Source of the DNA: Promethearchaeota archaeon
Lineage (GTDB): Archaea; Asgardarchaeota; Lokiarchaeia; Sigyniarchaeales; SOKP01
NCBI GenBank assembly: GCA_048938445.1
Contig: JBHLME010000004.1
Location: forward strand, 1-64,000
Length of the DNA stretch: 64,000 nt
Direction: 5' to 3'
The stretch's first letter is position 1. Each line of letters starts with the position of its first letter. Position numbers and translations under genes: made by a program. Below, piece by piece: positions 25,953 to 64,000 of this stretch. The notes under the pieces were generated by a model. It searched no databases. It saw only the letters and a list, made by a program, of their open reading frames with translations, and had not been told where the DNA came from.

Positions 25953-25989
25953 ATAATAAAAATTTAATTAATTGGTAGAGTAAAGAACA

Positions 25990-33825: not shown

Positions 33826-33874
33826 AAGTTAATTTTTGATTTAGAATTTATCAAAATTTTTGAGATATTTGGTA

Positions 33875-41949: not shown

Positions 41950-41986
41950 AATAATATTCAAAAGTAATAATAAACCAACAAATATT

Positions 41987-42376: not shown

Positions 42377-42414
42377 TTAATCTCGTAATTAATGAAATTA
42401 AAAATAAGAAAAAT

Positions 42415-42933: not shown

Positions 42934-42989
42934 TTTGAAATCAAATAAATAAAAATTTTTAAATTTTTTTTTTTTTTGAGGTTAAAAAA

Positions 42990-43838
42990 ATGCAAAAAAA
43001 TATTACTCCTGATGAAAAACAAAAAGTCATTGAGAAACGAGAAGAAAATATCAGAAAAAATCTTGAAAAGATTAAACATAAATTAGTGGTTATCTCTGGT
43101 AAAGGAGGGGTTGGTAAGACTACTGTAGCGGTGAATCTTGCTATTAGTTTAGCTAGCATAGGCCATAGAGTAGGGATCTTGGATGTCGACATTACAGGAC
43201 CAAATGTATTAAAGATGTTAGGAGTCAATCCCGAATTAAAACCCGTAGTCGATCCTCAAAATGAAAAATTCTATCCCGTTAATGGTCCTTTAAATATGAA
43301 AGTAATGAGTATGGCTTTTTTATTAGCAGATCAGGATAGCCCAGTAATATGGAGAGGTCCCATGAAAATGACCGCGGTGAGACAATTTTTGGGTGATGCT
43401 GAATGGGGTGAACTTGATTATTTGATTTGTGACTTACCTCCGGGAACATCTGATGAAACATTAGATATTTTACAATTAATACCAGATGAAAATGTAATAA
43501 TCGTGTCAACACCTCAAGAAGTAGCTCTGATGGATGCCCGAAAGACAATTAATATGGCACAAGTCATGAAAAGGAATGTTATAGGGATAATTGAAAATAT
43601 GTCAGGATTCAAATGTTCTAAGTGTGGTTCATTCATAGAGATTTTTGGTAGTGGTGGAGCAGAGAAGGCTGCAAAAGATTTTGATATCAAATTATTAGGA
43701 AAGATTCCTTTTGAAACAGAGATAGGCCAGCAAGGCGACAAGGGGATACCATTTACGATAAAATATCCTGATTCTGAGAGTTCTAAAGCTTTTAGAAACA
43801 TTATAAAAGTAATTCAAGAAATATTAGAAAAAAAATGA
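42990..43838 (+). CDS. mrp: Mrp/NBP35 Fe-S carrier ATPase
   Basis: SGKGGVGKT, WRGP, DLPPGTSD, ENMS, CSKC. Confidence 0.92.
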   Translation: MQKNITPDEKQKVIEKREENIRKNLEKIKHKLVVISGKGGVGKTTVAVNLAISLASIGHRVGILDVDITGPNVLKMLGVNPELKPVVDPQNEKFYPVNGPLNMKVMSMAFLLADQDSPVIWRGPMKMTAVRQFLGDAEWGELDYLICDLPPGTSDETLDILQLIPDENVIIVSTPQEVALMDARKTINMAQVMKRNVIGIIENMSGFKCSKCGSFIEIFGSGGAEKAAKDFDIKLLGKIPFETEIGQQGDKGIPFTIKYPDSESSKAFRNIIKVIQEILEKK

Positions 43839-43853
43839 TTAAATAAAAAGAGT

Positions 43854-44330
43854 GTGAATATTCTCGTGAAAAAAGATTCTTTTGATGATTTTGTTGAAGA
43901 GCTACAACAAGAAATCATTGATAAAGAACTAGAAGATTATAATGAGTATATTGTAGAATTATTCCATAATCCAAAAAATTGGGGTAAACCCCCTGATGAT
44001 GAAATTACCGTTTCTCAAACGTATTTAGGACCCTGTGGAGACACGATGCACTTCTTCTTGAAAATTAATGATAATATTATAGAAAATGCTCATTTTATAA
44101 CAGATGGTTGTGGTGCTTCAGTTGCGACTGCAAGTCAAACCACACTCCTTATCAAGGGAAATTCAATAGAATTTGCTAAAAAATTGAAACCAGAAGATAT
44201 TGATAAAGCTTTGAAAGGATTACCAGAAGATCATAAACATTGTGCTGAATTAGCCGTAAGAACTTTATCACGGGCAATAGATCAATATGAAATAAATTAT
44301 AAAAAAAAAAAAATAAAATATAAAAAATAA
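43854..44330 (+). CDS. IscU/NifU-like scaffold
   Basis: NPKNWG, CGD, GCG, HC. Confidence 0.88.
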   Translation: MNILVKKDSFDDFVEELQQEIIDKELEDYNEYIVELFHNPKNWGKPPDDEITVSQTYLGPCGDTMHFFLKINDNIIENAHFITDGCGASVATASQTTLLIKGNSIEFAKKLKPEDIDKALKGLPEDHKHCAELAVRTLSRAIDQYEINYKKKKIKYKK

Positions 44331-44351
44331 ATTAAAGAGGTAGAAAATAAG

Positions 44352-44789
44352 ATGGTTATAGTAGCCATACCTTCTAGTGGAGAAGGAGGTTTAAACGAAA
44401 GTATGAATCCCCGATTTGGACGCTGTCCTAGCTTTACATTAGTAACTATTGAAAATGGAGAGATAAAAGAAGTAAGGGGGGTCCCAAATAATGCCGCAAA
44501 TTCGATGGGTGGAGCAGGAATCCAAGCAGCACAGACTATAGGGAATAATGGCGCGGAAGAAGTTATCGTTGGCTTTTTGGGACCAAATGCTGCTGAGTCT
44601 TTAAATGCAATGAATTTAAAGATATATCAAGCACCAAATCAACAATTAACGGTTAAAGATGTAGTAGATTTATATTTAGAAGGATCACTTCAAGAACTAG
44701 ATTCTGCAAATGTAGGTGCTCATCATGGTATGGGTGGAGGAATGGGGATGGGCAGCGGAATGGGCGGTGGAAGAAGAAGACAATTTTAA
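44352..44789 (+). CDS. NifB/NifX family protein
   Basis: RFGRCP, GGAGIQAAQ, GPNA, Gly/Met tail. Confidence 0.88.
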   Translation: MVIVAIPSSGEGGLNESMNPRFGRCPSFTLVTIENGEIKEVRGVPNNAANSMGGAGIQAAQTIGNNGAEEVIVGFLGPNAAESLNAMNLKIYQAPNQQLTVKDVVDLYLEGSLQELDSANVGAHHGMGGGMGMGSGMGGGRRRQF

Positions 44790-44821
44790 ACAAATAAGCA
44801 AAAATAAAATCAATTGAAATT

Positions 44822-45742
44822 ATGGTTAGAACTCCTAAAATTATTACTATTACAGGCGGTAAAGGAGGTACTGGTAAGACACTTTGTGCAGTTAATATTG
44901 CAACCATGTTTAAAAATGAAGGAAAAAAAGTTTTATTAATAGACGGTGATGTTGAAAATCCTAATACTTATTTATTACTCGGTGGAACTTTACTAAATAA
45001 AAAGGAAGTACATTTCTTTAAACCTAATATTCTTAAAGATAAATGTACCAAATGTGGATTATGTGCAGAAAATTGTGCACCACATGCTCTCCTTTATTTA
45101 GAAAATGCGATACCAATCCCTATTTTAAGTGTATGTTCCGGTTGTAAATTATGTTATAAAATTTGTCCCTCTGAAGCAATTCTACCGGATAGTAAAATAA
45201 TAGGATGGAAATATCAAACGAAAGTAAATCAAATCTCCTTGTTAATTGGTGAATTAAAACCATCAGAAGCCCGTTCAGCAGCAGTAGTTGATGCACTTTT
45301 ACAAGATCTTGAAACCATTATTGATAATAATCCTGAGACCTATGATATAGTTATTTTAGATACGGCGCCAGGAGCTCACTGTGATGTGGAATTATTAATT
45401 GAGAAATCAGATTTTGTCATTCCTGTAACTGAACCAACTAAATTTGGAAAATTAGATTTATTACGGATAATTGAATTGATTGAGCTATTACAAAAGGAAT
45501 ATAAAGTAATTGTGAATAGATCTTCGTTATTAGGGTATCGAGAACCGTTTTTGAGGGAATTATCCGAGAATAATATTGAAACACTTGGAGATATCCCATT
45601 AGATGATGAGGTTGTCAAATCTTATTGCCAAGGAACACCATTAATGGACTCTGAAAGTGTTTTTAATAGAAAAGGAGATGCATATTTAGCTTTTATAAAA
45701 ATTTTTGAAAATTTAAAATCTTGGATTAAAGACAATATTTAA
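44822..45742 (+). CDS. MinD-family P-loop ATPase with inserted ferredoxin
   Basis: GGKGGTGKT, DGDVENPN, two 4Fe-4S motifs, VTEPT. Confidence 0.9.
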   Translation: MVRTPKIITITGGKGGTGKTLCAVNIATMFKNEGKKVLLIDGDVENPNTYLLLGGTLLNKKEVHFFKPNILKDKCTKCGLCAENCAPHALLYLENAIPIPILSVCSGCKLCYKICPSEAILPDSKIIGWKYQTKVNQISLLIGELKPSEARSAAVVDALLQDLETIIDNNPETYDIVILDTAPGAHCDVELLIEKSDFVIPVTEPTKFGKLDLLRIIELIELLQKEYKVIVNRSSLLGYREPFLRELSENNIETLGDIPLDDEVVKSYCQGTPLMDSESVFNRKGDAYLAFIKIFENLKSWIKDNI

Positions 45743-45759
45743 ATGGTGACTAGTTTCTC

Positions 45760-46680
45760 ATGGAAAAAAAAATTATAGCGGTCATTTCAGGAAAAGGTGG
45801 TGTTGGAAAAACATCTCTTACAGCATCTTTAGCAAGTTTGGCTTCTAATGAAATAAAGATTGCACCAATTATTTTAGATTGCGATGTAGATGCTCCAAAT
45901 TTGGCTATAATTCTACCAGCAAGGTCAGAGAAGGAGATAGAATCAATTGATACTTATACTACTTTAAAAGCTGAATTTATAGAAGATAAATGTGTTCAAT
46001 GTAAAAAATGTATCGATGAGCATTTTTGTGAGTTTAATGCTTTAAGATGGGATGCTGAAAGTCAAATACCAAAAATTGATTATTTAGCATGTGAAGGATG
46101 TGGAGCGTGTAAAGTATTATGCTCTGAGCATGCATTTAAAATTGATGCGGTTAAAAGTGGCGAAATCATCTCTTATAAGATTAATACTGGTCATCCATTT
46201 GTATATGGAAAAACTAGGTTAGGAAGTACTACATCAGGGAAATTGGTGTCAGATATAAAAGAATATACTAAAAATTTAAAAGAATTTAAGGAGAGTAATT
46301 TAATCATAATTGATGGTCCACCGGGTATAGGATGCCCCGTAATAGCTACTGTTTCGGGATTAGATTTCGTTATTACGATTACTGAACCTACTCCATCAGG
46401 TCTTCATGACCTTATTAGAGCAATTGAAGTAGTACAGGAATTTAAAATCCCGTTTGGAATAGTCATTAACAAGTCTGATTTAAAAAGTCCTTTTCAAGAG
46501 AAATTTAATGAATATATAACTCAAACAGATTATACTTTAATCGGAAAAATTCCATATGATGTAAATATTCCTCGAGCCTTGTCATTTGCTAAACCAGTTG
46601 TTGATTTTGACCCAGATACAAATGCGAGCATCGCAATTAAAACAATTTATAAAAATTTAAAAAAGTTGTTATGGTCTTAA
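45760..46680 (+). CDS. MinD-family P-loop ATPase with inserted ferredoxin
   Basis: SGKGGVGKT, DCDVDAPN, CEGCGAC, DGPPGIGCP. Confidence 0.9.
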   Translation: MEKKIIAVISGKGGVGKTSLTASLASLASNEIKIAPIILDCDVDAPNLAIILPARSEKEIESIDTYTTLKAEFIEDKCVQCKKCIDEHFCEFNALRWDAESQIPKIDYLACEGCGACKVLCSEHAFKIDAVKSGEIISYKINTGHPFVYGKTRLGSTTSGKLVSDIKEYTKNLKEFKESNLIIIDGPPGIGCPVIATVSGLDFVITITEPTPSGLHDLIRAIEVVQEFKIPFGIVINKSDLKSPFQEKFNEYITQTDYTLIGKIPYDVNIPRALSFAKPVVDFDPDTNASIAIKTIYKNLKKLLWS

Positions 46681-48348: not shown

Positions 48349-49359
48349 TTATAAAGCTTTAATCTTTTCTTGAAAAATAATTTTATTTCTTTTCTCTTCT
48401 ATTAAATATAAAATATATTCATGATCTTGGGAAATATCCGGAAGTATGAATAATACTTCTTCACCTGGAAGCCATTTTTCTATATTATCATAAAGAATCA
48501 ATTGTTCAAAAAATTCATATAATGATGAGACCTTGATAATTATTTTATCGAATATATCTTTTGTTCGATTTGTTATAATTATTTCTACTTCTTTTCTATC
48601 ATTAATTACATTTATTTTATTTATTCTGAAAGGATTTTCGCTTTTATAATATAGATCTTGGACTTTAGGCTTATCAAATAATTTGATATTTGAGAATCCA
48701 ATTTTTTTATCATTACTTACAATATAACTTATAGGAACTCCTTTTAATGAGAGATATGAAATTGCTTTTTGAATTTTTAAAATTGTTGTATCAGTTTTTT
48801 TTATTACCGATTGAAAATATTGCGAACAAATGTTTTTAATAAGTTTACTAATTCTTTTTTTTATCTTGTCTCCCCTTTCAATTAATTCTTTAGATTTTTG
48901 AGTTTTTATCATATCCAATTTTTCAATTTCAGCTCTAATCAATTCCGAAAGGTAAAATTTAAAATGTTTATTGATTCTTTCTGTCATTTCTTTGATTAAT
49001 GCACCACCAAAAATGTCCATCTCAATGGGTAATGCAAGAATTAATACTATAGTATCATAATTTTCTTCTTCTAATCCCGCTCTTCTTTTAATTCGCTTTG
49101 AAGGAACTAAGAATTTTTTCGCAAAATACATTTTATCCCCATATTCCAAATCTACCCGATCAAGAGAGGTCTTATCACTAAGATCTAAGAACCATATGGA
49201 ATGGATCCGAAGTATGTGCATTTTTTCTTCATTTTTTTTTATAACATCCTCTGGACTTACTAAAATTGGAATATGACCTAATTTCTCATCAAAATATAAT
49301 AAAAAAACTTCACATAATTGTTCTGCTTGAATAATTTTTCGTTCATTCTCAGTTAACAT
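48349..49359 (-). CDS. Hypothetical protein, longin/uDENN-like N-terminus suspected
   Basis: VFLLYFDEKLGHIP motif; beta-rich C-terminus; last gene of the hydrogenase operon. Confidence 0.6.
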   Translation of the reverse strand: MLTENERKIIQAEQLCEVFLLYFDEKLGHIPILVSPEDVIKKNEEKMHILRIHSIWFLDLSDKTSLDRVDLEYGDKMYFAKKFLVPSKRIKRRAGLEEENYDTIVLILALPIEMDIFGGALIKEMTERINKHFKFYLSELIRAEIEKLDMIKTQKSKELIERGDKIKKRISKLIKNICSQYFQSVIKKTDTTILKIQKAISYLSLKGVPISYIVSNDKKIGFSNIKLFDKPKVQDLYYKSENPFRINKINVINDRKEVEIIITNRTKDIFDKIIIKVSSLYEFFEQLILYDNIEKWLPGEEVLFILPDISQDHEYILYLIEEKRNKIIFQEKIKAL

Positions 49360-49401
49360 GTTATAAAATTATTTTTCCTCCATTAATTTTTTAAATTCTA
49401 T

Positions 49402-50703
49402 TTAATGTGTAGCACAAGAGATACAAGGATCAAATGCTCTTATCATCATTTGAATTTTTTTTTTTACAAATTGTAGATCTTTTTTTTCATATAATTTTTG
49501 AGCATATTGTGTAATCATTTTATTAATTAGTGGGAGATTTATTTCAGTGGCTATAAAAAGTTTTGCCTCTTCTATAATTTTCTTATTATTTATGCGATAA
49601 TGATGGATTAGCGTGCCTCTTGGAGCCTCAACAACTGCAATTCCATTTTGGTTTTTGATTGTAGATATTTCAGGGAGTGGAAAAGAATTCTTTAAAATCG
49701 GATCTTCCAAGAGATATAATGTTTTAATTACTTCAACATCCATTTCAATTAATCTTAAAAAATTAGCATATAAGAGATTGTTCCGCCATGATTTTTGAAA
49801 AAAATTGAGGTATGAGGAAATTTGATCCGTTCCATAACCTTCTATAATTTGATTTCGAGCTATTGGTCCGACTATATAATTTCTATTATTTTCAATGTTG
49901 AAATCAATTCCATGCAGATTAGGATCTTTGTCAAAATATGAGTTATAATGAATCTCGGAAAAATCTTCGTATTTAGTGTTGCTCTTTTTAAGTGTTAAAA
50001 CACCCGCATACCTATCATAATCTTTATTCCTGTTTAATGCCAAATAATAGGGATTTGGAAGCATAAATTCTTCTGGAGGTGTAAATTGTGAAAAAATATT
50101 GATGAATTCTTCAATAATTGCTTCTAAAATAAACGATGATTTCTCAAGATATTTTTGGGCAATTTTTATGTTTTTTAATGAAGGTTGAAATATAGTACCT
50201 CCCGGTATGGGTGTTATTAAATGTATGGAACGGCCTCCGAAAAGAATATCAAGATCATTACCAATTTTTATTATATCAAAGATATTTGAAGTTAATTGAC
50301 TATTATATTTCAATAAATCATTTAAATTAAGAGTATTTTTACTTAAATTAAAGATTTCTAAAAGATCAGGAAATGATTGAAAATAAAAATGCATCGCATG
50401 TGATTTTAACAACTCACCGACCATCAAGATGCGTCTTATAAAAACAGCTTGTTGATGAGGCTTGATATTATACATTGTTTCTATAGTTTTACAGCTTACA
50501 ATACTTTGTGATGCATGACATAATCCACATATTCTTGAAATTATTCTGGGAACATCTGTTATTTTTTTTCCTATAAGTAAATTTTCAAATCCTCTGTATG
50601 GTCCAATTTTAAATTCTACATGAGATATTTCATCATCTTTCATAAAAATTTCCAAATTTCCATGACCTTCGACTCTCATGCATACATCTACCACCTTTAG
50701 CAT
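49402..50703 (-). CDS. Group 3 [NiFe]-hydrogenase large subunit
   Basis: RVEGHG, RICGLC, EAPRGTLIHHY, DPCISCATH then stop. Confidence 0.92.
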   Translation of the reverse strand: MLKVVDVCMRVEGHGNLEIFMKDDEISHVEFKIGPYRGFENLLIGKKITDVPRIISRICGLCHASQSIVSCKTIETMYNIKPHQQAVFIRRILMVGELLKSHAMHFYFQSFPDLLEIFNLSKNTLNLNDLLKYNSQLTSNIFDIIKIGNDLDILFGGRSIHLITPIPGGTIFQPSLKNIKIAQKYLEKSSFILEAIIEEFINIFSQFTPPEEFMLPNPYYLALNRNKDYDRYAGVLTLKKSNTKYEDFSEIHYNSYFDKDPNLHGIDFNIENNRNYIVGPIARNQIIEGYGTDQISSYLNFFQKSWRNNLLYANFLRLIEMDVEVIKTLYLLEDPILKNSFPLPEISTIKNQNGIAVVEAPRGTLIHHYRINNKKIIEEAKLFIATEINLPLINKMITQYAQKLYEKKDLQFVKKKIQMMIRAFDPCISCATH

Positions 50704-50704
50704 A

Positions 50705-51466
50705 TTATCGCCTCCAAATTTTTGGTTTTGAAAATCTATAGAATATGCCAGAATATTTTTTTAAATCTTTCACAAGATTAAGCAAACTTAAGAAATTAAT
50801 TATACTCGAAGTAAAATCTCTTGAGACGGGTCCAAGACATCCTTCACATGGAATTCCTCGCTTTATGCATTCATGATCACATCCCTCTCTAGTAATAGGT
50901 CCTAAGCACATAATTCCTCTACTTAAGAAGCAATTGGTATTTTCTTCATAATTATTGAGTTCAATATTGTGAGGATATAGCTGATTAATCTGAGTAATCG
51001 GATTGAATTTAAAAGTAGTTTTGTAGGGACATTCTGAACATAAATTCTTTTTAGATAATTCAATATTTTTTCTCTCTAATAGTTTTATCAGACAATTTCC
51101 AAATAATTTTGACGGTGGAGGACAACCTGGTATGATTCCATCTATCTCTATAAAATCTGATAGAGGGGCGGCAATCTTTTTTTTTGATAAACTTAAAATT
51201 CCTCCAAAAGCGGCACATGTCCCTAATGCGTATACTTTTTTTGTAGATATTCTTATATCTTTAAGAAAGTCAATCTGTGAATCCTCTGAAACACATCCTT
51301 CTATCAATGCTATATCACATAAATCTGCCCGAGGTTTATCAGATATAAAAGGAAAGTAAGATATTTCTGTTCTCTCTAGAAGTTGAGGAAAGATATCTAA
51401 GGAAATCAAAGAAGATATACAACCGCTACAAGATGTTAATGAGGTAATTAGAAATTTAAGTTTCAA
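50705..51466 (-). CDS. [NiFe]-hydrogenase small subunit (MvhG/HydD-like)
   Basis: SCSGC, GTCAAFGG, PGCPP, CLGPIT, CEGCLGP. Confidence 0.9.
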   Translation of the reverse strand: MKLKFLITSLTSCSGCISSLISLDIFPQLLERTEISYFPFISDKPRADLCDIALIEGCVSEDSQIDFLKDIRISTKKVYALGTCAAFGGILSLSKKKIAAPLSDFIEIDGIIPGCPPPSKLFGNCLIKLLERKNIELSKKNLCSECPYKTTFKFNPITQINQLYPHNIELNNYEENTNCFLSRGIMCLGPITREGCDHECIKRGIPCEGCLGPVSRDFTSSIINFLSLLNLVKDLKKYSGIFYRFSKPKIWRR

Positions 51467-54002
51467 ATTTGTATTCCTCCTTTAATAGGTTATAAAATCT
51501 ATTACTAATGTTTGAAAATTTTATTCCTTCTACAGCATTTAGGTTTTTAACAATTATATTCCTGCCTAACCTTGGCCCTAAGACCTTTTTTAATAATTGC
51601 ACTTTTTTCTGTATTTTTTGAATGCCATCTAGATATCTGCAAGCATCTTTCCTACATCCAATAATCATTACTCCATGAAATCCCCTTTCAAGAGCTCTTA
51701 TTATGAAATTAGTATCAACCCGTCCGGTGCAAGGAACTCTAATGATAAATATATTGGGACGATAAAATTGTTTTTTAAGACCAGCATCATCGGCTGCAGC
51801 ATACCCACAAGATTTACAGCAAAATGCTAAAATCTTAGGAGAAACGTTAAATTTTGAGTAAATGTCTATAGTTTTAAAAATCTTTTCATTGGTATCAATA
51901 TTCATCTCAATAGCATTAGTTGGACAGACGCTTACACATGTTCCACATCCTTTACATTTAAATTTATCAATATTTATTTTTTCCCCTTCAATCGTTATGG
52001 CATTGTATGGGCAAGCATTAACACACAATGAACAAAGTCCGCATCTTGTCTCATCAAGTTCTATCCCTGTGAATTCTGAAATTAAATAATCTTTCGATAG
52101 AAGTGATATTATTTTAAGTGCAACATTATTGGAAATATTTATTGTTGATTGATAGTTAAAAGGACCTAGTATTGTTCCAACTCCATAAATCCCTGAGGCC
52201 AATGTTTCTTCACTCATGAAACCGTTATCATTTAAAGTAAAATCAAGAGTTTTTCTGAGGGTTTTTAAATCCTTATTGGGCATTAAATTGAGGTTCAAAA
52301 TAATCAAATCACTTGGATATTCTTTTGAATCTGCAATCACTATATTTTCTTTATCATTTTTTTCTATTTTGACTTGTGAAACATAATGAACTCTTGAATC
52401 CATAGATTTCATAATTGGCTCATGGTTATGATGGAAATTTTTTAAATCATAAAAGGTATTTACGTGACAATCTGGGTTTTTTACTTTAATGCAATTTAAG
52501 TATTTTAGAGCAATATTATCTGCAAGTTCGGAATGATCGTGAGCAGGTCCAACATCCTGAATGATGGAGATGGATTTTGGAGGTTTTCTATCAGATAATT
52601 TAACTATTTTACCTTCAGTAGGACCATCTGAAGATAATATCCTTTCAAATTCTACTGAAGTTATGATATTATCCTGAGGATTATAGTGATAATCTTTCAG
52701 ATCTGAATATAAATCAGCACCTATAGCGATAACTTTCACACCCACTTTAATTTTAATTTCCTCTGGTTTTTGAGTTAAATCTATGGCTTTATTCACGCAC
52801 GCTCTTTCACAAATCCTACAATTTAAGCAATTTTTAATATCAATTTCTTCTATTAAAGGAGCATAGGGATATGAATTTTGAAAAGGAAGAAAAATTACTT
52901 TCCTGTTTACAAGATTAAACTCATATTGATTGGGTTTTTCCACACTGCATACTTCTATACATTGTTTGCATCCAGTACATTTTTTTTCATCTACAAAGCG
53001 AGGTTTTTTAATTAAATTTATGGCGAAATTGCCGACTTCACCAGAAACACTCTTTATTTCCGTATTAGTGAATATTTCAATGTTTTTTTCTTTTACAATT
53101 TCTCCTATCAATTCTGAAATGAAACATATTGAGCAATCCCCCATTTTATAGATTCTATGCCACCGTGCCACTTTTCCTCCTAAAGTTGGAGATTTTTCAA
53201 TTAAATACACTTTAATACCTGCTCTCGCCAAATTTAAACCTAAGGTCATTCCTGCTATACCCCCTCCTAATATAGCACAGCTTTTTTCAACCTCAACTCT
53301 TTTTACTTTAATTTCTTTTTGCAGATATATACGCTCGACAGCGGCTTCGATTAATAATTGTGCCTTTTTTAAAATCAGAGCTGAATCATCTTTGCTATTA
53401 ATCATTTGATGCACCCAACAACATTGTTCTCTAATATTTGCTATTTCAAGATTAGATCGATCGATTAATCCCTCAAAAATCCTTTCAAAAACATGTTGAT
53501 GTGTCTTGGGAGAACATGCCGCAATTACGATTTTATTCAAGAAGTTTTCTTTAACCCAATTGGAAATTTTATCCAAATTTTTCTCTTGACATAAATTTTC
53601 AAATATCTTTACTGAAACAACATTTTGTATTTTATTGATATAGTTCTCTAAAGCGTTGATGTTAATTGTATTAGAAATTTCAGTATTACAGTTGCAAATA
53701 ATCACTCCAATTCGATTTATTTCACTGCCTTTTGAATTAAGATATTCTATTTCTTCTCCTGATAAAATTCTTTTATTTATATTAAGAATTTTTAAAATTC
53801 TTTTACCATCTTCAGTTAAAAAATATGATTTTTTATCTTTACCAATAAGAGAACCGAGTTTTCTTAGGTGGAAATTTAATTGTCCTGTTTGATCTAAACC
53901 CAATTTATCCATTAAATCTGTGTATGGTATGTAACCCTCTTTTTCAAGGAGTAGTAAAATTTTTCTTCTAAACTCATGAGACAATATTGAGTATATATCC
54001 AT
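51456..54002 (-). CDS. Winged-HTH + HdrA-like + MvhD fusion protein
   Basis: aa 1-75 ArsR-like wHTH; CNC, AACSP, NIREQC, GGGIAG, ferredoxin motifs; C-terminal AFCC, RVPCTGRVD, GCRKDAC. Confidence 0.88.
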   Translation of the reverse strand: MDIYSILSHEFRRKILLLLEKEGYIPYTDLMDKLGLDQTGQLNFHLRKLGSLIGKDKKSYFLTEDGKRILKILNINKRILSGEEIEYLNSKGSEINRIGVIICNCNTEISNTININALENYINKIQNVVSVKIFENLCQEKNLDKISNWVKENFLNKIVIAACSPKTHQHVFERIFEGLIDRSNLEIANIREQCCWVHQMINSKDDSALILKKAQLLIEAAVERIYLQKEIKVKRVEVEKSCAILGGGIAGMTLGLNLARAGIKVYLIEKSPTLGGKVARWHRIYKMGDCSICFISELIGEIVKEKNIEIFTNTEIKSVSGEVGNFAINLIKKPRFVDEKKCTGCKQCIEVCSVEKPNQYEFNLVNRKVIFLPFQNSYPYAPLIEEIDIKNCLNCRICERACVNKAIDLTQKPEEIKIKVGVKVIAIGADLYSDLKDYHYNPQDNIITSVEFERILSSDGPTEGKIVKLSDRKPPKSISIIQDVGPAHDHSELADNIALKYLNCIKVKNPDCHVNTFYDLKNFHHNHEPIMKSMDSRVHYVSQVKIEKNDKENIVIADSKEYPSDLIILNLNLMPNKDLKTLRKTLDFTLNDNGFMSEETLASGIYGVGTILGPFNYQSTINISNNVALKIISLLSKDYLISEFTGIELDETRCGLCSLCVNACPYNAITIEGEKINIDKFKCKGCGTCVSVCPTNAIEMNIDTNEKIFKTIDIYSKFNVSPKILAFCCKSCGYAAADDAGLKKQFYRPNIFIIRVPCTGRVDTNFIIRALERGFHGVMIIGCRKDACRYLDGIQKIQKKVQLLKKVLGPRLGRNIIVKNLNAVEGIKFSNISNRFYNLLKEEYKFET

Positions 54003-54358: not shown

Positions 54359-54985
54359 GTGGAAAGTCGAATGGAAGTGCTTGAATTAAAGCCGTTGAAA
54401 AAAAAAAGAGTTTGCGCATATGTTGCCAAGAAAAAAAAAGATGATTTTAATGATTTTTATCTGGATAAATTAAGAGATTTTATTATTAGGAAAAAAATTG
54501 ACTTTATAACAATCGATTTCAATGTGGATATGAAAGAGTTTAATGATTCAGAACTTGCAAAAACATTAAATGAGATGAATATTAGATATTTTCAAGTGGA
54601 CATACCAGAATATGCAATGGGATATATCTATCAAGAAATTGTAGAAAAAACTGAACTACTAAATGATTTATGTGGAGAATTTGAATCAATGAAAGAAAAA
54701 GATACTTTAAAAGGAGAAAGTCTAAAAAATTGGATAGATGTATTGAGAGAAGATATTCAAGAAAAAGAAATATACATTAGTTTGAGATTAAGACCACAAT
54801 GGATTGTCAAAAAAATGTTAGATATTGCTAAAACCATTAAAACTGAAGAGGTATCTTTACTTCATCTCGTCCAGGCAGACATATGCGAGGATATTTGTAA
54901 TCAAGTTACAGAATATTTAAGAGAATTAGACGTGAAAGTTGTTCAATATACTAAAAAACATAATATAATAAATGTAGAATTTTAA
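54359..54985 (+). CDS. Uncharacterised paralog family, member 1
   Basis: VLELKPLKKK N-terminus, YFQVDIPE, LKNWIDVL. Confidence 0.8.
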   Translation: MESRMEVLELKPLKKKRVCAYVAKKKKDDFNDFYLDKLRDFIIRKKIDFITIDFNVDMKEFNDSELAKTLNEMNIRYFQVDIPEYAMGYIYQEIVEKTELLNDLCGEFESMKEKDTLKGESLKNWIDVLREDIQEKEIYISLRLRPQWIVKKMLDIAKTIKTEEVSLLHLVQADICEDICNQVTEYLRELDVKVVQYTKKHNIINVEF

Positions 54986-55006: not shown

Positions 55007-55738
55007 ATGCCAAAAGTATTAGAATTAAAACCATTGAAGAAAAAACACCTAAAACTGATTATGGTTGAAAGCGAATTTCCGGTTGAGTGGTGGTTTGAGG
55101 CTCCAAAAAGAGCAAAAGAAGATTTAGTCTGGAATTTACATTTAATATCTAAGGAATATCTTCAAGTTATTGAAGAATTAATTAATAAATATAAACCAGA
55201 CTTCGGAACGGAAGAAAAACCAGCGAATTGGGATGATTCACCAAATCAAATAGATCCATTAGAGGAACTATTCAAACTAAAAAATATTTCCTTCCAACAT
55301 GTAGATATTGATGATAACGCTAGAGATTATTTATCATCTGCATTGGATGAACATAGATCTACTATAAAAAAATTAGAAAACAGAATTCGAGAAATAATGG
55401 AAAAAAATGGAGTTATTCCTGAAAATGATGAATTATTTCAAAGATTAGTTCTGTGGAAAGAATATTTAGAACAAGATTATGAACAACAAGAAGATGAAGT
55501 TCGCTATAATATTAGAGAAGCTTGGATGATGATGAATATCATAAATCTTGCAAAAAATATTGATGGAACAAAACTCAAAGGATTATTCATATGTGATCTA
55601 CGACATTTCAATGGAATTGAAAAACTCGCAAGTGAATTAAATATAGACATTGAGAAAATAAAAATTAAGAGATCTATTAAAACTGAGGATGTTGAAGAGG
55701 AGCTAGAAAAAAATGTCGAAATTGAAGTTAAAGAATAA
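55007..55738 (+). CDS. Uncharacterised paralog family, member 2
   Basis: VLELKPLKKK, FQHVDIDD, LVLWKEYL, ICDLRH. Confidence 0.8.
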   Translation: MPKVLELKPLKKKHLKLIMVESEFPVEWWFEAPKRAKEDLVWNLHLISKEYLQVIEELINKYKPDFGTEEKPANWDDSPNQIDPLEELFKLKNISFQHVDIDDNARDYLSSALDEHRSTIKKLENRIREIMEKNGVIPENDELFQRLVLWKEYLEQDYEQQEDEVRYNIREAWMMMNIINLAKNIDGTKLKGLFICDLRHFNGIEKLASELNIDIEKIKIKRSIKTEDVEEELEKNVEIEVKE

Positions 55739-55752
55739 TTAATTTAGAGAAT

Positions 55753-56769
55753 ATGAGGAGGAAAATAAAAATGCAAAAAGAAGATCTGGAAAAAAAAGTA
55801 CATTCTATTCTTGGAAGAAAATCTATTATTGAATTAACTCCAATAGTTATAAAAAAAAAAGAAACATCCGATAAAATCTGTTACTTCTTTGATACTGATG
55901 AAAATGCTTCTCCTTTTGACATTAATATGGCCTATGATGCTGGTTTTGATATTGTGGTTCCAATTAGTAGGATGACTGCTGATCAAGTTCCCAAACTCGT
56001 TCAAGATGCAATTTTTTCTAGGAAACCAAATGCTCCCACAACATTTTTTATAGGGGGGTCCAATGTTAAAGAAGGTGAAAAAATAGCCAAAAAAGTCTTA
56101 AAGTCTTTAGTACCACCCTTTGAATGCCCTGTTATTATCGATCCAAGAGGTTCACACACAACAGCTTCAGCAGTCGTCGCAATGACAATTGATGTTGCTC
56201 TAAAATTTCATAATATTAAAGATTTAAAAGGCAAAAAAATAGTAGTATTTGGAGCGGGGCCTGTTGGAAGGATTGCAGCTATTTTGGGAGCAAAAATTGG
56301 AGCTGATACGTGCATTGTGGAAACTTGGGATAAATCAAGCCAAGATTTTATCACGAATTTAGCAAATGAATTGAAAGAAGAAGCAGGTAAGGGTGCAACT
56401 GCTATTAAGGGAATATTTGCCCCAAATCTCGAAGATCGAGAGAATTTAGCTATTGATGCTGATATTATATGGTCTTTAGCAGCAGCAGGAATTGAAATTT
56501 TGTCAGAAAATTTAATGAAAAAATTGCGCGGAAAGAAAATTGTGGTAGATATAAATCTTGTCCCACCTTATGGCATAGAAGGCATTAAGCCAAAACATTA
56601 TAACGAAGAACTTTATCCTGGGATGTTTTGTATCGGTGCATTAGCGTTAGGTAGATTGAAATCTAATTCTGAGAGTGAAATTTTAAAAGAAGCCGCTAAT
56701 ACCAAGGGATCAAAAGTATTTGACTATAATTATGCATTTGAAGTTGCTAAAAAGCTTTTAAATAAATAA
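55753..56769 (+). CDS. MtdA/MtdB-like NAD(P)-dependent methylene-H4MPT/H4F dehydrogenase
   Basis: SPFDINMAYDAGFD, DPRGSHTTA, GAGPVG, DINLVPPYGIEG. Confidence 0.82.
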   Translation: MRRKIKMQKEDLEKKVHSILGRKSIIELTPIVIKKKETSDKICYFFDTDENASPFDINMAYDAGFDIVVPISRMTADQVPKLVQDAIFSRKPNAPTTFFIGGSNVKEGEKIAKKVLKSLVPPFECPVIIDPRGSHTTASAVVAMTIDVALKFHNIKDLKGKKIVVFGAGPVGRIAAILGAKIGADTCIVETWDKSSQDFITNLANELKEEAGKGATAIKGIFAPNLEDRENLAIDADIIWSLAAAGIEILSENLMKKLRGKKIVVDINLVPPYGIEGIKPKHYNEELYPGMFCIGALALGRLKSNSESEILKEAANTKGSKVFDYNYAFEVAKKLLNK

Positions 56770-56843: not shown

Positions 56844-59132
56844 ATGGTCGAATTTTCGAGGGCTCCTAAATTTTTGAAAAAAGTTAGAATTAAAGATGCT
56901 TTTAAAGAAGATGCTGGGAGAGGGATAGTCAGAATAGATCCTGAAATTATCAAGGAATTAAATTTTAAGTCTGGAGATGTTATTGAAATTATTCATCCCA
57001 TCGTAAACAAAAAAACAGCAGCAGTTTTAATGACAGGTAAAAGTGAAGATGCCAATACGAATATCATCCGAATTGATCCTTCATTAAGAAGAAATTTAAA
57101 TGCATCTATTGATGATTACGTGGAAATTAGAAAGATTGAAGCCATTTTAGCAGATAATCTAATTCTTTCAGGATTAGATCAATCATATATCATTAGAGAT
57201 ATACAACAATTGACTAGGATCTTAGACAGTCGTGTAGTTACCAAAGGTGATAGTCTCAGTTTTTATGCAATGGGACGTAGAATCGATTTGGTAATACTTG
57301 ATTATTTACCAAAAGCTGATGCTGTGAAAATACATTTAGGAACAAAAATTAAGCTCTCTGAGAATATAACTAAAGAACTTATAAAACAAGAACCATCTAG
57401 AGTAAAAAGAATAAAATATGAAGCAATAAGTGAATTAGAAGAGGAAATGGAAAAGCTTCGAGGACGAATAACTTATGAAGATATCGGTGGATTAGAAAAC
57501 ATTATTCAAAGAGTTAGAGAAATAATTGAATTACCTATAAGACATCCAGAATTATTTAAAAAAATTGGTATTGATCCTCCTAAAGGTGTTTTATTGCATG
57601 GCCCGCCTGGTACGGGTAAGACACTGCTTGCTCGAGCTATAGCATTTGAGACAGATGCTCAATTTATTTCTATTAGCGGTCCAGAAATCATGAGTAAATT
57701 TTTTGGTCAGAGCGAAGAAAATTTGAGAAATATTTTTGAAGAAGCAAAAAAAAAGGCACCTACAATAATATTTCTTGATGAATTGGATTCAATTGCACCT
57801 CAACGAGATGAAGGTAAAGGACAAGTAGAATCTAGAGTTGTTGCTCAATTACTTTCATTGATGGACGGATTAGAAAATAGAGGTGAAATAATTGTAATTG
57901 GAGCAACTAATAAAATTAATAATATAGACATTGCTTTGAGAAGACCCGGGAGATTTGACAGAGAAATAGAAATCGGTGCGCCGAATTTAGATGGGAGATA
58001 TGAAATCTTATTAATTCATACTCGAGGAATGCCTCTATCAAAAGATTTAGACTTAAAATTAATTGCAAATAAAACACATGGATTTGTTGGAGCAGATATT
58101 AAAGCATTATGCAAAGAAGCTGCAATGCTAGCGATAAGAGAGATCCTTCCTGATATTAATTTAGAAGATCCTGTTCCCGAAGAAATATTAAATAAAATTG
58201 AAATTAGAATGGATCATTTTATAGAAGCATTAAATAGTATAGAACCTTCTGCTTTAAGAGAAGTTCTAATAATAAAACCAACAGAAACATGGGATGACAT
58301 TGGAGGGCTAGATGAGGCTAAACAACAGTTAAGAGAAACTATAGAATGGCCTTTAAAATATCCAGGATTTTATAAATATATGAAATCCCAACCTCCAAGT
58401 GGAATCTTGCTATATGGTTTACCAGGAACAGGGAAAACTTTATTAGCAAAAGCACTTGCTCATGAAACAGAGGTAAATTTTATTTCCATCAAAGGTCCTG
58501 AATTTTTATCTAAATGGGTTGGTGAAAGTGCTAAAGCTGTGCGAGAAACCTTCAAAAAAGCACGATCTGCTGCCCCTTGTATCATCTTTTTTGATGAAAT
58601 CGATGCTATAGCTTCCAGAAGGGCTGAATCATCTAGCTCTCGTGTAGTTGAACAAGTTGTTGCACAACTTCTAACAGAGATCGATGGATTAGAGGAATTA
58701 CATAATGTTGTATTATTAGCTGCAACAAATAGACCTGATATGCTAGATCCTGCTCTATTGCGTTCAGGAAGATTTGGGCGCCATATTGAAGTTCCATTGC
58801 CAAATCAAGTCTCAAGACAAAAAATATTTAAAATTCATTTAAAAGAAAAACCCCTATCTGATGAAATTGATATTAATAAACTAGCTGAAAAACTCGACGG
58901 ATATACGGGTGCTGATATTAAAGGAGTGTGTGAAGAGGCTACCATATTAGCTATTCGCCGGGGAATTTATGAACAATCAGTAGATGAGATCAATCCAAAA
59001 TCTTATGATAGTGTTAAGATTACTATGAGCGATTTTGATAAATCAATTGAAAAGATCTCCAAAACAGCAGAAAGAGCGAAAAAGTCCTATCAAGAAAATT
59101 TAAAAGAACCTCTTGAAAATTTGTATGGATGA
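56844..59132 (+). CDS. cdc48: Cdc48/p97 (VAT) AAA+ ATPase
   Basis: N domain, two GxPGTGKT modules, DELD/DEID, RPGRFD; C-terminal LYG (HbYX). Confidence 0.95.
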
Positions 59133-59969: not shown

Positions 59970-60560
59970 TTGGTAGCTATAAATAATCGAGCAAGGTTAA
60001 AAAAAAACTTAATAATATATTTAGTCGGATTTGAGAATAATAGCACAAAATTTGAAAATTTAAAAGAAATATTTTGGTTATTCAAGGATAGGTTGGTTAA
60101 TTACGCAACATTCTATATTGCTGATGACAATTCTATATTATGGCAAGATTCTCCTCTTCCAGATTTATTAAAATCATATAATATTCCTTATTTTGAAATA
60201 GAAATTCCTAAACAAACAAAAATGTTTTTTGATGATAAAGTTCAAACAATTAAAAAATATATGACTAAGGATTTGCACGAATATAATCTTTTAGTTGATA
60301 AAAATTGTGCTAGAGGTCGTTATTTAAAATTTTGGAAGGAATTATATGAAAATGAACTCAAAGAAATTAAACGGTTTTTTGAATATAAAATTATACCAGT
60401 TTACATAGCAGAATCTATATTAGAAAAACTTGAAGGAATGTTAGATGAAGATTTATTGTTGTTGCATTTTGGTGAGATAAGTACTTTTGGAGAAATAATG
60501 AAAGTAGTAAAACATGTTAATTCAAAAATTGATATCTCCTATATACACTATATGAGCTAG
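59970..60560 (+). CDS. Uncharacterised paralog family, member 4
   Basis: YNIPYFEIEIP, GRYLKFWKEL, IPVYIAESIL, LLLHFG. Confidence 0.75.
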   Translation: MVAINNRARLKKNLIIYLVGFENNSTKFENLKEIFWLFKDRLVNYATFYIADDNSILWQDSPLPDLLKSYNIPYFEIEIPKQTKMFFDDKVQTIKKYMTKDLHEYNLLVDKNCARGRYLKFWKELYENELKEIKRFFEYKIIPVYIAESILEKLEGMLDEDLLLLHFGEISTFGEIMKVVKHVNSKIDISYIHYMS

Positions 60561-60711
60561 TATATCAAGTTGGATTTGTAGAATCATATAATATTTTTAA
60601 AAATTAAAGAAAGGAAAGTAGATTTGGATATAAGTTCGAAATTAATCATAAACAATTAAAAAATGGAGGAAAAAAACTAAAATAAAAACAAATAAAGGTA
60701 ATGCAAAGATT

Positions 60712-62652
60712 ATGGATACAAAGGATAAAAGTCGAATTTTCGTAGCTATCTGTCAATGAGGATTAAATATCACGGAAGTAATTGAATGTAAGACTTTAGC
60801 AGATTATACAAAAAATCTTCCTAATATTGTAGGCAGTGGGAGTTATATCAGTCTCTGTACTGCTTCGGGATCATCATTTATTCAGCAAAATATTGAGTCC
60901 ACTAAAGCCAATCGATTGATTATTGTTGCTTGAACGCCAAAGACACATGAGCCTGTTTTTAAAACAATATTAAAAAATATTGGAATTGATTCATCTTATT
61001 TAGAATTTGTAAATATAAGGGAACATTCCTCATTTGTCCATAGAAACGATAAGAATGGTGCATTGAATGTAGCAAAAGATCTTATTAGAGGAGCAATTGC
61101 TAGAGCCGCAAATTTAGAGAAAATTGCTATTAAAAAAATCGATTTAACTAAAAAAATATTAATAATAGGTGCTGGAGTAGCCGGATTATCAGCAGCAATA
61201 GATTTAGCGAATTTAGGTTTTGATGTGAATATCGTTGAAAAAAGACCTAGCATTGGGGGTCTTATGGCTAAACTTGATAGAACCTTTCCTACGGATGATT
61301 GTAGTATTTGAATATTAGGGCCGATTATGTTAAAAGTAGCGAATATTCCTAACATTCAATTGTTTACATATACAGATATTGAAGATATTTCAGGTCATAT
61401 TGGAAATTTTAAAATTCTTATAAAACAAAAAGCAAGATATGTTACTAATGATTGCAATGGATGCGGAGCCTGCGTAGAAGCGTGTCCTGCATATGGATTT
61501 GATGAATTTAATGAAAATCTCAACTCAAGAAGGGCAATATATATTTATTTTGCTCAAGCGGTACCTTTAACAGCTCAAATAGATATGGAACGTTGTATAA
61601 ATTGTAAATTATGAATAGATTCTTGTGAATTGAATGCTATTGATTTTAATCAGAAGGATGTATTTACAAATTTAAATGTGGGGTCAATAATTGTTACAAC
61701 CGGTCTCGATGTTCATAAAGGAAGAGAATATGGCAGAGGAAAATATCAAAACATATTAACTCAGCTTGAATTGGAAAGAATATTGGCTCCAAATGGACCA
61801 ACTTCTGGACATTTAGTAAGACCTTCTGATGGAAAGCGACCTAAGAAAATATTATTTATAAATTGAGCTGGCTCAAGAGATCGTAATAGTCATCCCTATT
61901 GTAGCGTTGTATGCTGTAATTTATCCGTAAAAAACTCAAAATTAATAAAAACAGAATACCCTGATACAGAAATAGTTGTAAGTTTTATAGATATGAGATG
62001 TGCTGGAAAGGACTATGAAGAATATTATAATAGAGCAAGAGATTGTGGAATAATATTTCTTAGGGGTCATGTTGGAAAAATAAAAGAAGATCCTACAACA
62101 AAAGACCTACTCGTACAAATTGAAGCCTTTAATATGGAACACTACTTGGAAATGAAATTTGAACTTATTGTGTTGTCTTCAGCGTCAATTCCTTCAAAAT
62201 ATGCAAAAAAAATAAAAAAAATCTTAGCTTTGGAAACAAGCAGAGATGGATTTTTTAAAGAAGTTCATTCACGTTTAAATTTAATCGATACTAAAATTCC
62301 AGGAATTTGCATTGCAGGAGCTGCACAAGGCCCAAAGTCAATACCAGAAGCGATAATTCAGGGAAGAGCTGCAGCATCTTCTTTGTCGGGTATTATGAAT
62401 AAGGATAAATATGAAATACTTCTCATTCGAGGATATATAGATAATCATTTATGCTCGAAATGTGGATTATGTCAATTAAATTGTCCTTACAATGCAATTA
62501 CAATAAATAATAATCATGCTGAAGTCAATGAGATTACTTGTAAGGGATGTGGAACTTGTTTAGCAAATTGTCCATCCGAAGCGATAACACTAAAATATTA
62601 TAGAGAAGCTCAATATGAAGAACAAATTGATGCTATACTATTTGAATCGTAG
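60712..62652 (+). CDS. hdrA: Heterodisulfide reductase subunit A, selenoprotein with 5 in-frame TGA (646 aa)
   Basis: Track ORFs 61063, 61327, 61630, 61993 share one frame; TGA at 60757, 60931, 61309, 61612, 61864, all at Cys motif positions; ends at TAG. Confidence 0.9.
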
Positions 62653-62703
62653 AATTGAATTAAAAATTAACAGTGTCTAAATTTAACAATATTAGCTAAT
62701 AAT

Positions 62704-62778
62704 AAAGCCCGTAAGAAGGATTCCTATGAAGAAATGCTAGTCATATGAGGACTCACCCTGCAAGGGAGCGGGTTTTTT
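62704..62778 (+). ncRNA. Structured 3' UTR element, SECIS candidate
   Basis: Closing stem AAAGCCCG/CGGGTTTT, inner TCCT-ATGA...TGA-GGA arm, CCCT-GCA-AGGG hairpin. Confidence 0.55.
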
Positions 62779-62819
62779 ATTAAATTTTTATATATAATAT
62801 CCTGTCAGGTGTTAATGAA

Positions 62820-63326
62820 ATGGTTGCAATTAATTATAAATTTCGGAATCAGATTCTTGAAAATGTTAATGGTTCAACATTGGCTTGTTGTTATCAATGT
62901 GCAACTTGTTCAGGAATTTGTCCTGTAGCACAAGTCACAAAAGGCAAATATAATCCTAGGAGATTAATACTTGATGCACTTTTGGGTTTGAGACACATGA
63001 TATTCGGTTTAGATAAAAATTTTAATATTTGGGGTTGTACTGTCTGTGATACATGTGATGAGGTTTGTCCTCAAAATGTTAAACTCACTGAAATCTTTAC
63101 CATTTTAAAAAATATAAGTGTCGAAAAGGGTGAAGCACCCGATTATTATTACATTCAAGCATCAAATATACTCGAGACTGCAAAAGCAATTCCAAGTCAA
63201 CCCGCTATCCAAAGAAGACGAAATCAATTAGGATTGCCTAAAATAATGGAGCCTGATGTTGCTGAAATAAAAAAACTCTTAAAAGCCACAAACCTTTCAA
63301 TGAAACTTCGAAAAATTAGAGAATAA
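62820..63326 (+). CDS. hdrC: Heterodisulfide reductase subunit C
   Basis: CYQCATCSGICP, NPRR, WGCTVCDTCDEVCPQ. Confidence 0.9.
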   Translation: MVAINYKFRNQILENVNGSTLACCYQCATCSGICPVAQVTKGKYNPRRLILDALLGLRHMIFGLDKNFNIWGCTVCDTCDEVCPQNVKLTEIFTILKNISVEKGEAPDYYYIQASNILETAKAIPSQPAIQRRRNQLGLPKIMEPDVAEIKKLLKATNLSMKLRKIRE

Positions 63327-63649
63327 TTGTTTTTTAAGAGTTGTATTTAATTTTTCACTCAACGATTTTTCTATATAATATCTAAAAAGAAATTATAAAT
63401 ATTTTCTTATATATTAAGTGAAAATACCTATACGAATACTCCAGTCAAACTCATCCTTTTTTATAACACCAATGATAAATTTAATAATCATATTTTTTAA
63501 ATTTATTAATATTTATCAAGAGAATAAAATTTCATTTCCTTTTCAAATTATTTAATCACATATACTTTCTAGGTTTTTGATTTCTATTTTTTACTCTAAA
63601 TAATCTATTAGTTTAAAAAAAAAAGAAATAATAATTTCATATCATTAAA

Positions 63650-64000
63650 TTAGCCTTTAACAACTTCAATAAGCTTAGGAAATATCCTAGGATAATGGAC
63701 TGCCATGCAGTGAACTCCTGCTAATAATTTTTTAGCTTTTAATTCAGTTACAAAAGGTTTTAAGAATTCATAGTTAGCTTGGTCGTATGCTTCATTTTGA
63801 TCCTTTTTATCTGTTATTTCTGTTTTTATTTTTTTCCATTTTTCAAGAATATCCTTCGGTACGTCCACCCCTGGAACAAACATATCAAATCCTTTTGCAA
63901 TCGCATAACTTTTCATTGGAAATAAGCCAAGTAAAACAGGAACTTTATATCGAAGGATTGCTCTTAAAAATTCAATAGTCTTATCTAGGTCATAAACAAC
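63650..64000 (-). CDS. Methylenetetrahydrofolate reductase-like protein, C-terminal part (runs off the window)
   Basis: Frame open to the window end: VVYDLD...VPVLLGLFPMKS...PGVDVP...GVHCM. Confidence 0.7.
   Translation of the reverse strand, partial: VVYDLDKTIEFLRAILRYKVPVLLGLFPMKSYAIAKGFDMFVPGVDVPKDILEKWKKIKTEITDKKDQNEAYDQANYEFLKPFVTELKAKKLLAGVHCMAVHYPRIFPKLIEVVKG

Follow-up and report, generated by a model that had tools for sequence, protein, structure and literature searches.

An Asgard archaeal hdrA gene with five in-frame UGA codons that most likely encode selenocysteine at iron-sulfur-binding cysteine positions

Introduction

How is a gene translated whose reading frame is intact from start to stop except for five TGA codons? 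The question is raised by hdrA, which lies near the end of a 64,000-nucleotide (nt) stretch of DNA from a Promethearchaeota archaeon (assembly GCA_048938445.1, contig JBHLME010000004.1, positions 1 to 64,000 of the forward strand). This stretch was analysed at its full length and is referred to as the window. HdrA proteins are the electron-bifurcating subunits of heterodisulfide-reductase-type complexes and contain flavin and iron-sulfur clusters. The gene encodes a full-length member of this family, and its five UGA codons most likely encode selenocysteine (Sec) at iron-sulfur-binding Cys positions. Overall, we consider it probable that the gene specifies a complete HdrA of a Promethearchaeota (Loki-type Asgard) archaeon in which five UGAs are read as Sec with the help of one Loki-type selenocysteine insertion sequence (SECIS) element. 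A single hairpin of this type, embedded in a three-way junction in the 3' untranslated region (UTR), would direct the decoding of all five codons. We infer that Sec rather than another residue is inserted at the UGAs, and likewise that tRNA-Sec, EFSec, PSTK, SepSecS and SPS are present in the source genome.

An initial annotation of the window, made from its letters alone, had noted that HdrA is a known selenoprotein in Methanococcales and Lokiarchaeota. Published work agrees with this, describing Sec197 of Methanococcus maripaludis HdrA (PMC13518236) and multi-Sec HdrA proteins of Lokiarchaeota (PMC4989117). According to the text of Mariotti et al. (2016, PMC4989117), Lokiarchaeota HdrA carries up to four Sec residues, distributed over five possible positions. 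The lokiSECIS is defined there as an AUGA core, a 9-bp stem, an 11-nt loop (first five bases mostly A; last base G, usually after A) and a GA, located near the stop codon. For hdrA, the same text reports SECIS elements only after a downstream vhuD, with hdrA always upstream of vhuD. A survey of Asgard selenoproteomes reports the Sec trait in most Lokiarchaeia (PMC11227280).

Results and discussion

Translation of positions 60712-62652 (+) yields 646 residues ending at a TAG, and the sole interruptions are TGA codons at residues 16, 74, 200, 301 and 385. The frame given in the initial annotation, running from ATG 60712 to TAG 62652 with five TGAs in the local contexts quoted there, was reproduced by this translation. 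Under translation table 11 the gene breaks into pieces, and proteins of 95, 62 and 219 amino acids, all predicted fragments of the window hdrA, are recorded separately in the databases, just as the annotation had stated that gene callers would split it. The uninterrupted translation could be matched end to end to solved HdrA chains, namely 9sfi_A (E 6.5e-190, query residues 8-643) and 5odc_A (E 2.7e-181), with further matches to 8rvu_a (E 1.2e-179) and 7bkb_A (E 5.4e-153). All five TGA sites face Cys in the alignments to 5odc_A and 9sfi_A, save residue 200, which is given as 'X' in 9sfi_A. Pfam analysis placed NAD_binding_8 and FAD families at residues 146-198 and Fer4 families at 241-308 and 575-629. 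All three NCBIfam models, HdrA2 (726.7 bits, cut-off 1100), HdrA (544.9 bits, cut-off 1400) and hdrA_Methbact (516.5 bits, cut-off 1300), scored below cut-off because they are longer than the window protein, with 762-777 positions of which the first ~640-650 were matched. Judged by these matches, the protein is an HdrA-family member and not one of the named NCBIfam HdrA equivalogs. For comparison, 18 full-length, single-stretch HdrA representatives were chosen from the best 150 of 12,726 matches; this choice was made because most top matches were fused multi-domain proteins. At every Cys column that is invariant in these 18 representatives, the window protein has either Cys or TGA.

A genome scan for hdrA relatives returned 15 loci, two of which (L014 and L015) were weak bacterial matches and were left out. 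The 13 loci kept come from genome bins labelled 'uncultured archaeon' or Promethearchaeota, a name that we take to cover the former Lokiarchaeota. Two of them, L001 (81% identity) and L002 (76% identity), are orthologous to the window hdrA, and L003-L013 (~51% identity) represent the published hdrA-vhuD type. We aligned the window gene and the 13 loci (14 sequences) and listed every column with any TGA. Six such columns were found, and all sequences covering them have only TGA, TGT or TGC at these positions (Table 1). Read as codons, this is the classical signature of Sec/Cys exchange. TGA/TGY exchange among orthologs had been proposed as a check in the initial annotation; it holds in every TGA column, although at sites 301 and 385 the TGA itself is found in the window only. 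All hdrA C-termini, that of the window gene with its TAG stop and those of the related loci, are without a U nearby, matching published Loki hdrA. In one relative, L010, another of the invariant N-terminal Cys positions (residue 49 of the window protein) carries TGA, and site 74 carries TGC. Across this alignment, Sec appears to move among the Cys positions of the N-terminal cluster between lineages.

An open frame of this kind would also result if UGA were reassigned in the organism to Cys, Trp or Gly, or read through without Sec. We regard this as highly improbable, the open frame itself being all that speaks for it. Stop-to-stop frames of at least 150 codons number 48 in the window, and they end with TAA in 36, TGA in 7 and TAG in 5 cases. 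The normal TGA stops listed in the initial annotation (6016, 13734 and 59132) are all among these seven, and its view that recoding is context dependent agrees with TGA being an ordinary stop in 7 of 48 long frames. The genes terminated by TGA are complete by family matches and end at homologous C-termini: the ammonium transporter covers its whole Pfam model, and the L001 homolog of Cdc48 can be aligned as far as the last codon ahead of the TGA at 59130-59132. Apart from hdrA, no long frame of the window contains an internal TGA flanked on either side by coding sequence. One stretch at 46.7-47.2 kb is doubtful. On by-eye reading of the translations, its minus frame resembles a helix-turn-helix regulator of the Lrp/AsnC type that starts after a TGA, and nothing recognisable was seen in the plus-strand frame. 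Further, the TGAs of hdrA swap only with Cys codons, and a SECIS-like element lies downstream of the gene. TGA as a normal stop, Cys-only exchange and a SECIS-like element together make up a Sec signature.

The SECIS core starts 64 nt past the TAG, which places the element 853, 1105, 1408, 1786 and 1960 nt 3' of the five UGAs. Its geometry is exact (9-bp stem, 11-nt loop) with 8 of 9 stem pairs formed, and, in line with the lokiSECIS definition, the loop begins with AGAAA and ends with AG while GA follows the stem. The GA forming the tandem G.A pairs is intact. Using a fixed-geometry scan, one strong 9-bp/11-nt-loop element was found in the window, at 62717-62751, a result that is partly post hoc in that the scan admitted an AGGA core because the window element had already been seen. 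Two other matches of the scan, at 49788-49820 (+, antisense to mvhA) and 9630-9598 (-), had only 7/8 pairs and were set aside.

Related loci carry elements of the same build. In L003-L008, L010 and L012, a vhuD with two TGAs lies directly after hdrA and is followed by the SECIS. No vhuD follows hdrA in the window, L001 or L002, where an element of the same geometry stands directly behind hdrA. Across 11 elements (window plus 10), 96 of 99 stem cells are standard pairs, and several pair types occur at most stem positions. These pairs were counted by script in a fixed register, joint MAFFT alignments of both SECIS classes being out of register. The RNAalifold consensus of window, L001 and L002 contains 22 pairs, three of them compensatory and one broken in the window, and the vhuD-type elements show the same three-way architecture with z-scores of -3.6 to -4.6. 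The run of six T residues at 62773-62778 is probably the transcript end, in line with archaeal termination in general. A covariance model built from eight vhuD-type SECIS elements recovered neither the window element nor the clear elements of L001 and L002; this miss is uninformative and no evidence against the element, because the model is too sequence-specific. The best window match of the model, at 56447-56492 (19 bits, E 0.04), lies inside a coding gene and was rejected.

The second core position of the window element is occupied by a G that can pair with the C after the 3' GA. In vhuD-type elements this position is a U facing A, and in L001 and L002 it is a U facing C. The G-C pairing option would presumably keep the AGGA-core element working. 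GGGA-core SECIS elements are functional in some protists, a point for which our literature search retrieved no source.

Published structural work suggests where the five residues would be located. As described in the text of one study, Cys197 of a partner HdrA (residue 200 here) ligates the [4Fe-4S] cluster of the N-terminal domain, the remaining ligands being Cys residues of this domain, and the cluster lies on the path to ferredoxin, the low-potential branch (PMC9012536). The thioredoxin-reductase-like-domain cluster leads to HdrBC and the inserted ferredoxin domain outwards, as far as described in the texts cited (PMC9012536, PMC12350162). In M. maripaludis, Sec197 and a Cys hold a density between the N-terminal cluster and the flavin (FAD), the role of which is called unresolved by the authors (PMC13518236). 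In our alignment, the invariant N-terminal Cys positions are 14, 16, 49 and 74, and the thioredoxin-reductase-domain group consists of 385, 397, 401 and 402. Residues 16, 74 and 200 would accordingly be expected at or beside the N-terminal [4Fe-4S] cluster, while residue 301 would occupy a ligand position in the inserted ferredoxin domain and residue 385 would belong to the four-Cys group and cluster of the thioredoxin-reductase-like domain, on the HdrBC branch. For the exact ligands, we follow the lists reportedly given in the 2017 structure paper. Sec at these positions would tune three different redox centres. In its most specific form, the proposal is that all five UGAs are Sec and place selenolates at three iron-sulfur centres (up to three at the N-terminal 'shuttle', one in the inserted ferredoxin domain and one in the thioredoxin-reductase domain), decoded from a stand-alone AGGA SECIS. 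We put this forward tentatively, as a possible rather than a likely account.

To characterize selection on the gene, the ratio of nonsynonymous to synonymous substitution rates (dN/dS) was calculated for the window versus L001. It was 0.089 overall, at a dS of ~1.26, and 0.119, 0.072, 0.087, 0.094 and 0.078 for the segments after the five TGAs. The ratio is low after each TGA, which implies translation of the downstream sequence for most of the time since divergence. Judged from these codon comparisons, purifying selection holds on every inter-TGA segment. The multi-Sec HdrA with TGA at Cys positions that the initial annotation had proposed is thus borne out by Sec/Cys exchange, purifying selection and a Loki-type SECIS in the 3' UTR.

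A number of observations weigh against reading all five codons as Sec. TGA occurs at sites 301 and 385 only in the window gene, the closest orthologs, L001 and L002, having TGT or TGC there, and pairwise dN/dS values are also compatible with a very recent loss of function. When proteins were searched for fragments that stop at site 385, the 62-residue fragment of the window itself was the only one returned. The SECIS core is AGGA, compared with AUGA in 10 of 10 other elements and in the lokiSECIS definition, the stem has an internal C.U mismatch and the second loop base is G. The hairpin energy, no better than in shuffled sequences, is -5.3 kcal/mol (z +0.46) versus -7.1 for L001, -8.5 for L002 and -8.9 for L005, and the z-score of the whole junction is -0.53 versus -2.27 for L001 and -2.51 for L002. 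The window element is the weakest of the 11 compared, though its gene has the most UGAs. Rfam gave no match, neither for the whole window at the gathering threshold nor for 60500-63400 at E values up to 10, presumably for want of a family covering this element. Genes for tRNA-Sec and the Sec machinery were not found in the 64-kb window, and scans of the window and of the 13 related loci detected no tRNA. Finally, the assignment of residues to clusters was made from the alignment and from summaries in other papers.

Some of these points would be explained by an HdrA with three Sec residues that is lately decaying. In that case the TGAs of sites 301 and 385 would have arisen by nonsense mutation, the SECIS would be eroding, and a truncated product or none at all would be made. 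Such a course would fit with both extra TGAs being confined to the window among 14 sequences and with a SECIS that has three deviations and is thermodynamically unremarkable, and the all-Cys HdrA paralog in the window might compensate. However, no TAA, TAG or frameshift is found across 1.9 kb of an AT-rich gene, and dN/dS stays at the low values given above after both sites. The TGAs at 301 and 385 are third-base changes of Cys codons, both at invariant Cys positions. Cys-to-TGA changes account for 25-27 of the 280-322 one-step nonsense paths in hdrA (unweighted), and the probability that two random new stops are both of this kind is ~0.006-0.009. As for the SECIS, single stem mismatches are also present in the elements of L003 and L010.

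Fragment proteins of other lineages bear on the same alternative. A cluster of 37 fragment proteins, 62% identical to the corresponding window fragment, assigned to Promethearchaeota where named and located on contigs of up to 69 kb, spans from the Met that follows site 200 to the residue just ahead of 301 in 8 of 8 sequences read. These eight sequences vary from one another at several residues. A stop at site 301 is kept across sequence variants of another lineage, which speaks against decay. The ends of these fragments thus lend site 301 independent, if indirect, support from a second lineage. For site 385, a 3-member cluster of 219-residue fragments (64% identity, one on a 10.9-kb contig) has the same start Met as the window fragment after 385, and a stop must therefore lie between residues 302 and 426 in that lineage. 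Support for site 385 is weaker than for site 301. All points considered, we believe a recent decay of the gene to be unlikely.

Further fragment clusters from other organisms (P0010, P0012, P0014 and P0015) begin just past other invariant Cys positions, in some cases following the CC pair around residue 402 and in others one position ahead of site 301. Such starts hint that Asgard HdrA may have further Sec positions, but they would be explained equally well by contig ends or by other stops.

A gene with three Sec residues would also be recovered if the SECIS core G and the two TGAs of sites 301 and 385 were sequencing or assembly errors in this metagenome-derived contig. All three depart by a single base from what the orthologs have (TGT/TGC to TGA; U to G). 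This is quite improbable in our view. The window fragments bounded by the TGAs are present with identical sequence on 2 contigs, which may or may not be independent assemblies, and errors would have had to hit the third positions of two Cys codons specifically.

Returning to the reading of all five UGAs as Sec, the surroundings of the codons were inspected for local structure. Folding of the 60 nt from UGA 301 (61612-61671, +) gives a long hairpin at -16.6 kcal/mol (z -4.5, a value reached by 0 of 200 shuffles), compared with -8.0 kcal/mol and another shape for the homologous stretch of L001, which has TGT. Among 627 sliding windows along the gene it ranks in the top 1%, with three other places coming close. 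When hairpins of the bacterial type were sought after each UGA, the other 4 of 5 sites proved unremarkable. The hairpin may be due to chance, or it could be a local aid to the decoding of a newly gained UGA.

Comparison with known systems

The literature search on multi-Sec HdrA turned up only Mariotti et al. (2016, PMC4989117). As in the Loki hdrA genes described in that text, the window gene ends with a UAA/UAG-type stop and has one 3' SECIS serving UGAs up to ~2 kb away. It differs from them in several respects. Five UGAs are present in one gene as opposed to up to four. UGA 301 lies in the CxxCxxCxxxC motif of the inserted ferredoxin domain, whereas the only Sec placed in a cluster motif by Mariotti et al. 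is in the last motif, with an extra Cys after it. The SECIS directly follows hdrA in the absence of vhuD rather than following vhuD, and the core is AGGA where Mariotti et al. always give AUGA. The Asgard selenoproteome survey (ISME J 2024, PMC11227280) counts HdrA among five widespread selenoprotein families and describes eukaryote-like SECIS elements with a kink-turn core. In its text, hdrA and frhD/vhuD are always neighbours and almost always have a common SECIS, unlike the vhuD-less hdrA of the window. The core variants named in its main text are AUGA_AA and GUGA_GA, and the AGGA of the window is absent from there. Multi-Sec HdrA itself has thus been known since 2016, and the differences from the published text are the five Sec residues, the Sec in the inserted ferredoxin domain, the SECIS without vhuD and the AGGA core.

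The M. maripaludis HdrA (9sfi, PMC13518236) shares with the window protein the full-length fold and a Sec197 that corresponds to residue 200 in a C-x-x-U context. As far as described there, only one Sec is present, the SECIS is of the archaeal type and the setting is methanogenic, in contrast to four more Sec residues and a non-methanogenic neighbourhood in the window. Eukaryotic selenoprotein P is comparable in that many UGAs per message are decoded processively from SECIS in the 3' UTR, as stated in the text of PMC4989117. Selenoprotein P, however, is a selenium carrier with two SECIS elements, while the window gene has a single element and encodes an iron-sulfur flavoenzyme.

If all five UGAs are indeed Sec, the window HdrA would be the most Sec-rich archaeal protein in the portions of the literature consulted. 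The U of the SECIS core would be dispensable in the Asgard system, and Sec would spread stepwise over iron-sulfur ligand positions. Multi-Sec HdrA is one argument for a eukaryote-like Asgard decoding of many distant UGAs from one 3' element. With the window gene, this argument would extend to five UGAs that span 1.1 kb, the farthest of them 1.96 kb from the SECIS, and hdrA is here uncoupled from vhuD. Sec in a textbook ferredoxin motif and at the cluster of the HdrBC branch would act as an iron-sulfur ligand or close neighbour and not as a classical catalytic nucleophile, which bears on the question about the role of Sec197 raised in the text of the 2026 M. maripaludis structure paper (PMC13518236). 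With its AGGA core, the element is a natural test case for the core bases that the Asgard machinery requires in a SECIS. In addition, gene callers split such genes into three to six pieces, and HdrA counts in Asgard metabolic reconstructions are distorted as a result.

Genomic context and other features

Table 1. Coordinates of hdrA, its TGA columns, the 3' UTR elements and the adjacent genes in the window. Codon counts are for covering sequences of the 14 aligned; Cys counts are for the 18 HdrA representatives.
Feature	Position	Strand	Description
Conserved gene	59970..60560	+	196 residues, no Pfam/NCBIfam family; directly 5' of hdrA; 69% identical to L001 counterpart
hdrA coding sequence	60712..62652	+	646 codons, five in-frame TGA, TAG stop; full-length match to solved HdrA chains
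UGA 1, codon 16	60757..60759	+	Second Cys of N-terminal CxC; TGA 13/13; Cys 18/18
Residue 49 column		+	TGA in L010 only; TGT in 12, window included
UGA 2, codon 74	60931..60933	+	N-terminal domain Cys; TGA 11/13, TGC in L010, TGT in L013; Cys 18/18
UGA 3, codon 200	61309..61311	+	Canonical HdrA Sec site (Cys197/Sec197 of structures); TGA 13/13; Cys 16/18
UGA 4, codon 301	61612..61614	+	Third Cys of second CxxCxxCxxxC, inserted ferredoxin domain; TGA in window only, TGT/TGC in 12/12 others; Cys 18/18
UGA 5, codon 385	61864..61866	+	First Cys of C-x11-C-x3-CC group, thioredoxin-reductase-like domain; TGA in window only, TGT/TGC in 13/13 others; Cys 18/18
3' UTR three-way junction	62706..62774	+	Outer helix, SECIS hairpin and small second hairpin; RNAalifold of window, L001 and L002
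Loki-type SECIS hairpin	62717..62751	+	Core AGGA 62717-62720; 9-nt 5' strand 62721-62729; 11-nt loop 62730-62740; 9-nt 3' strand 62741-62749; GA 62750-62751
Six-T run	62773..62778	+	At foot of junction; from sequence
hdrC-like gene	62820..63326	+	Two CxxCxxCxxxCP; TIGR03290 96.7 bits (cut-off 160); 76% identical to hdrC-like gene beside hdrA in L001
metF-like gene, 3' part	63650..64000	-	Methylene-tetrahydrofolate reductase (MTHFR) family; runs off window; 90% identical over 116 residues to MTHFR-family gene of L001

The window and L001 share the neighbours of hdrA in rearranged order, and their Cdc48 proteins are 88% identical. In L001, a MetV-like gene adjoins MetF. An HdrB with an NCBIfam score above cut-off is encoded at 33860-34831 of the window. 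By gene neighbourhood, this suggests a MetFV-Hdr-type bifurcating complex and not the methanogenic reduction of the coenzyme M-coenzyme B heterodisulfide (CoM-S-S-CoB).

Two weak paralogs of the 196-residue protein encoded 5' of hdrA are found at 54359-54985 and 55007-55738 (+), where they precede a gene with an Mpt_N domain (methylene-tetrahydromethanopterin dehydrogenase-like) at 55753-56769. The Atlas model of the 196-residue protein resembles part of Bathyarchaeota proteins that bear Mpt_N (TM score 0.82 by query). Going by this model comparison, the protein may be an accessory of C1-carrier metabolism.

In the HdrA paralog at 51456-54002 (-), the HdrA part is joined to an MvhD domain, and a winged-helix domain (DUF7347/HTH_24) is present at the N-terminus. 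Fusion of HdrA with a domain of the DNA-binding type is unusual. The alignment agrees with the earlier observation that this paralog has Cys at the first four of the five sites; at the fifth site the Cys is lost. It is part of an all-Cys set at 48349-54002 (-) without TGA, which comprises the HdrA-MvhD fusion, a small-subunit-like gene, a [NiFe] hydrogenase large-subunit-like gene and a 336-residue gene without a family.

Elsewhere in the window, 41542-46680 (+) encodes three Nitro_FeMo-Co (NifX/NifB-like) proteins, a ParA ATPase of the Mrp/NUBPL type, a NifU-like protein and two CbiA/ParA-ferredoxin fusions. A protein of 1022 residues with peptidase C25 (gingipain-type) and C25 propeptide domains is encoded at 20611-23679 (-). 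The stretch 24001-28000 has a G+C content of 0.38 and a GC skew of +0.21, above the rest of the window (G+C content 0.28-0.33), and spans a glutamate-synthase-domain gene and a 783-residue gene of the prismane/CO-dehydrogenase family.

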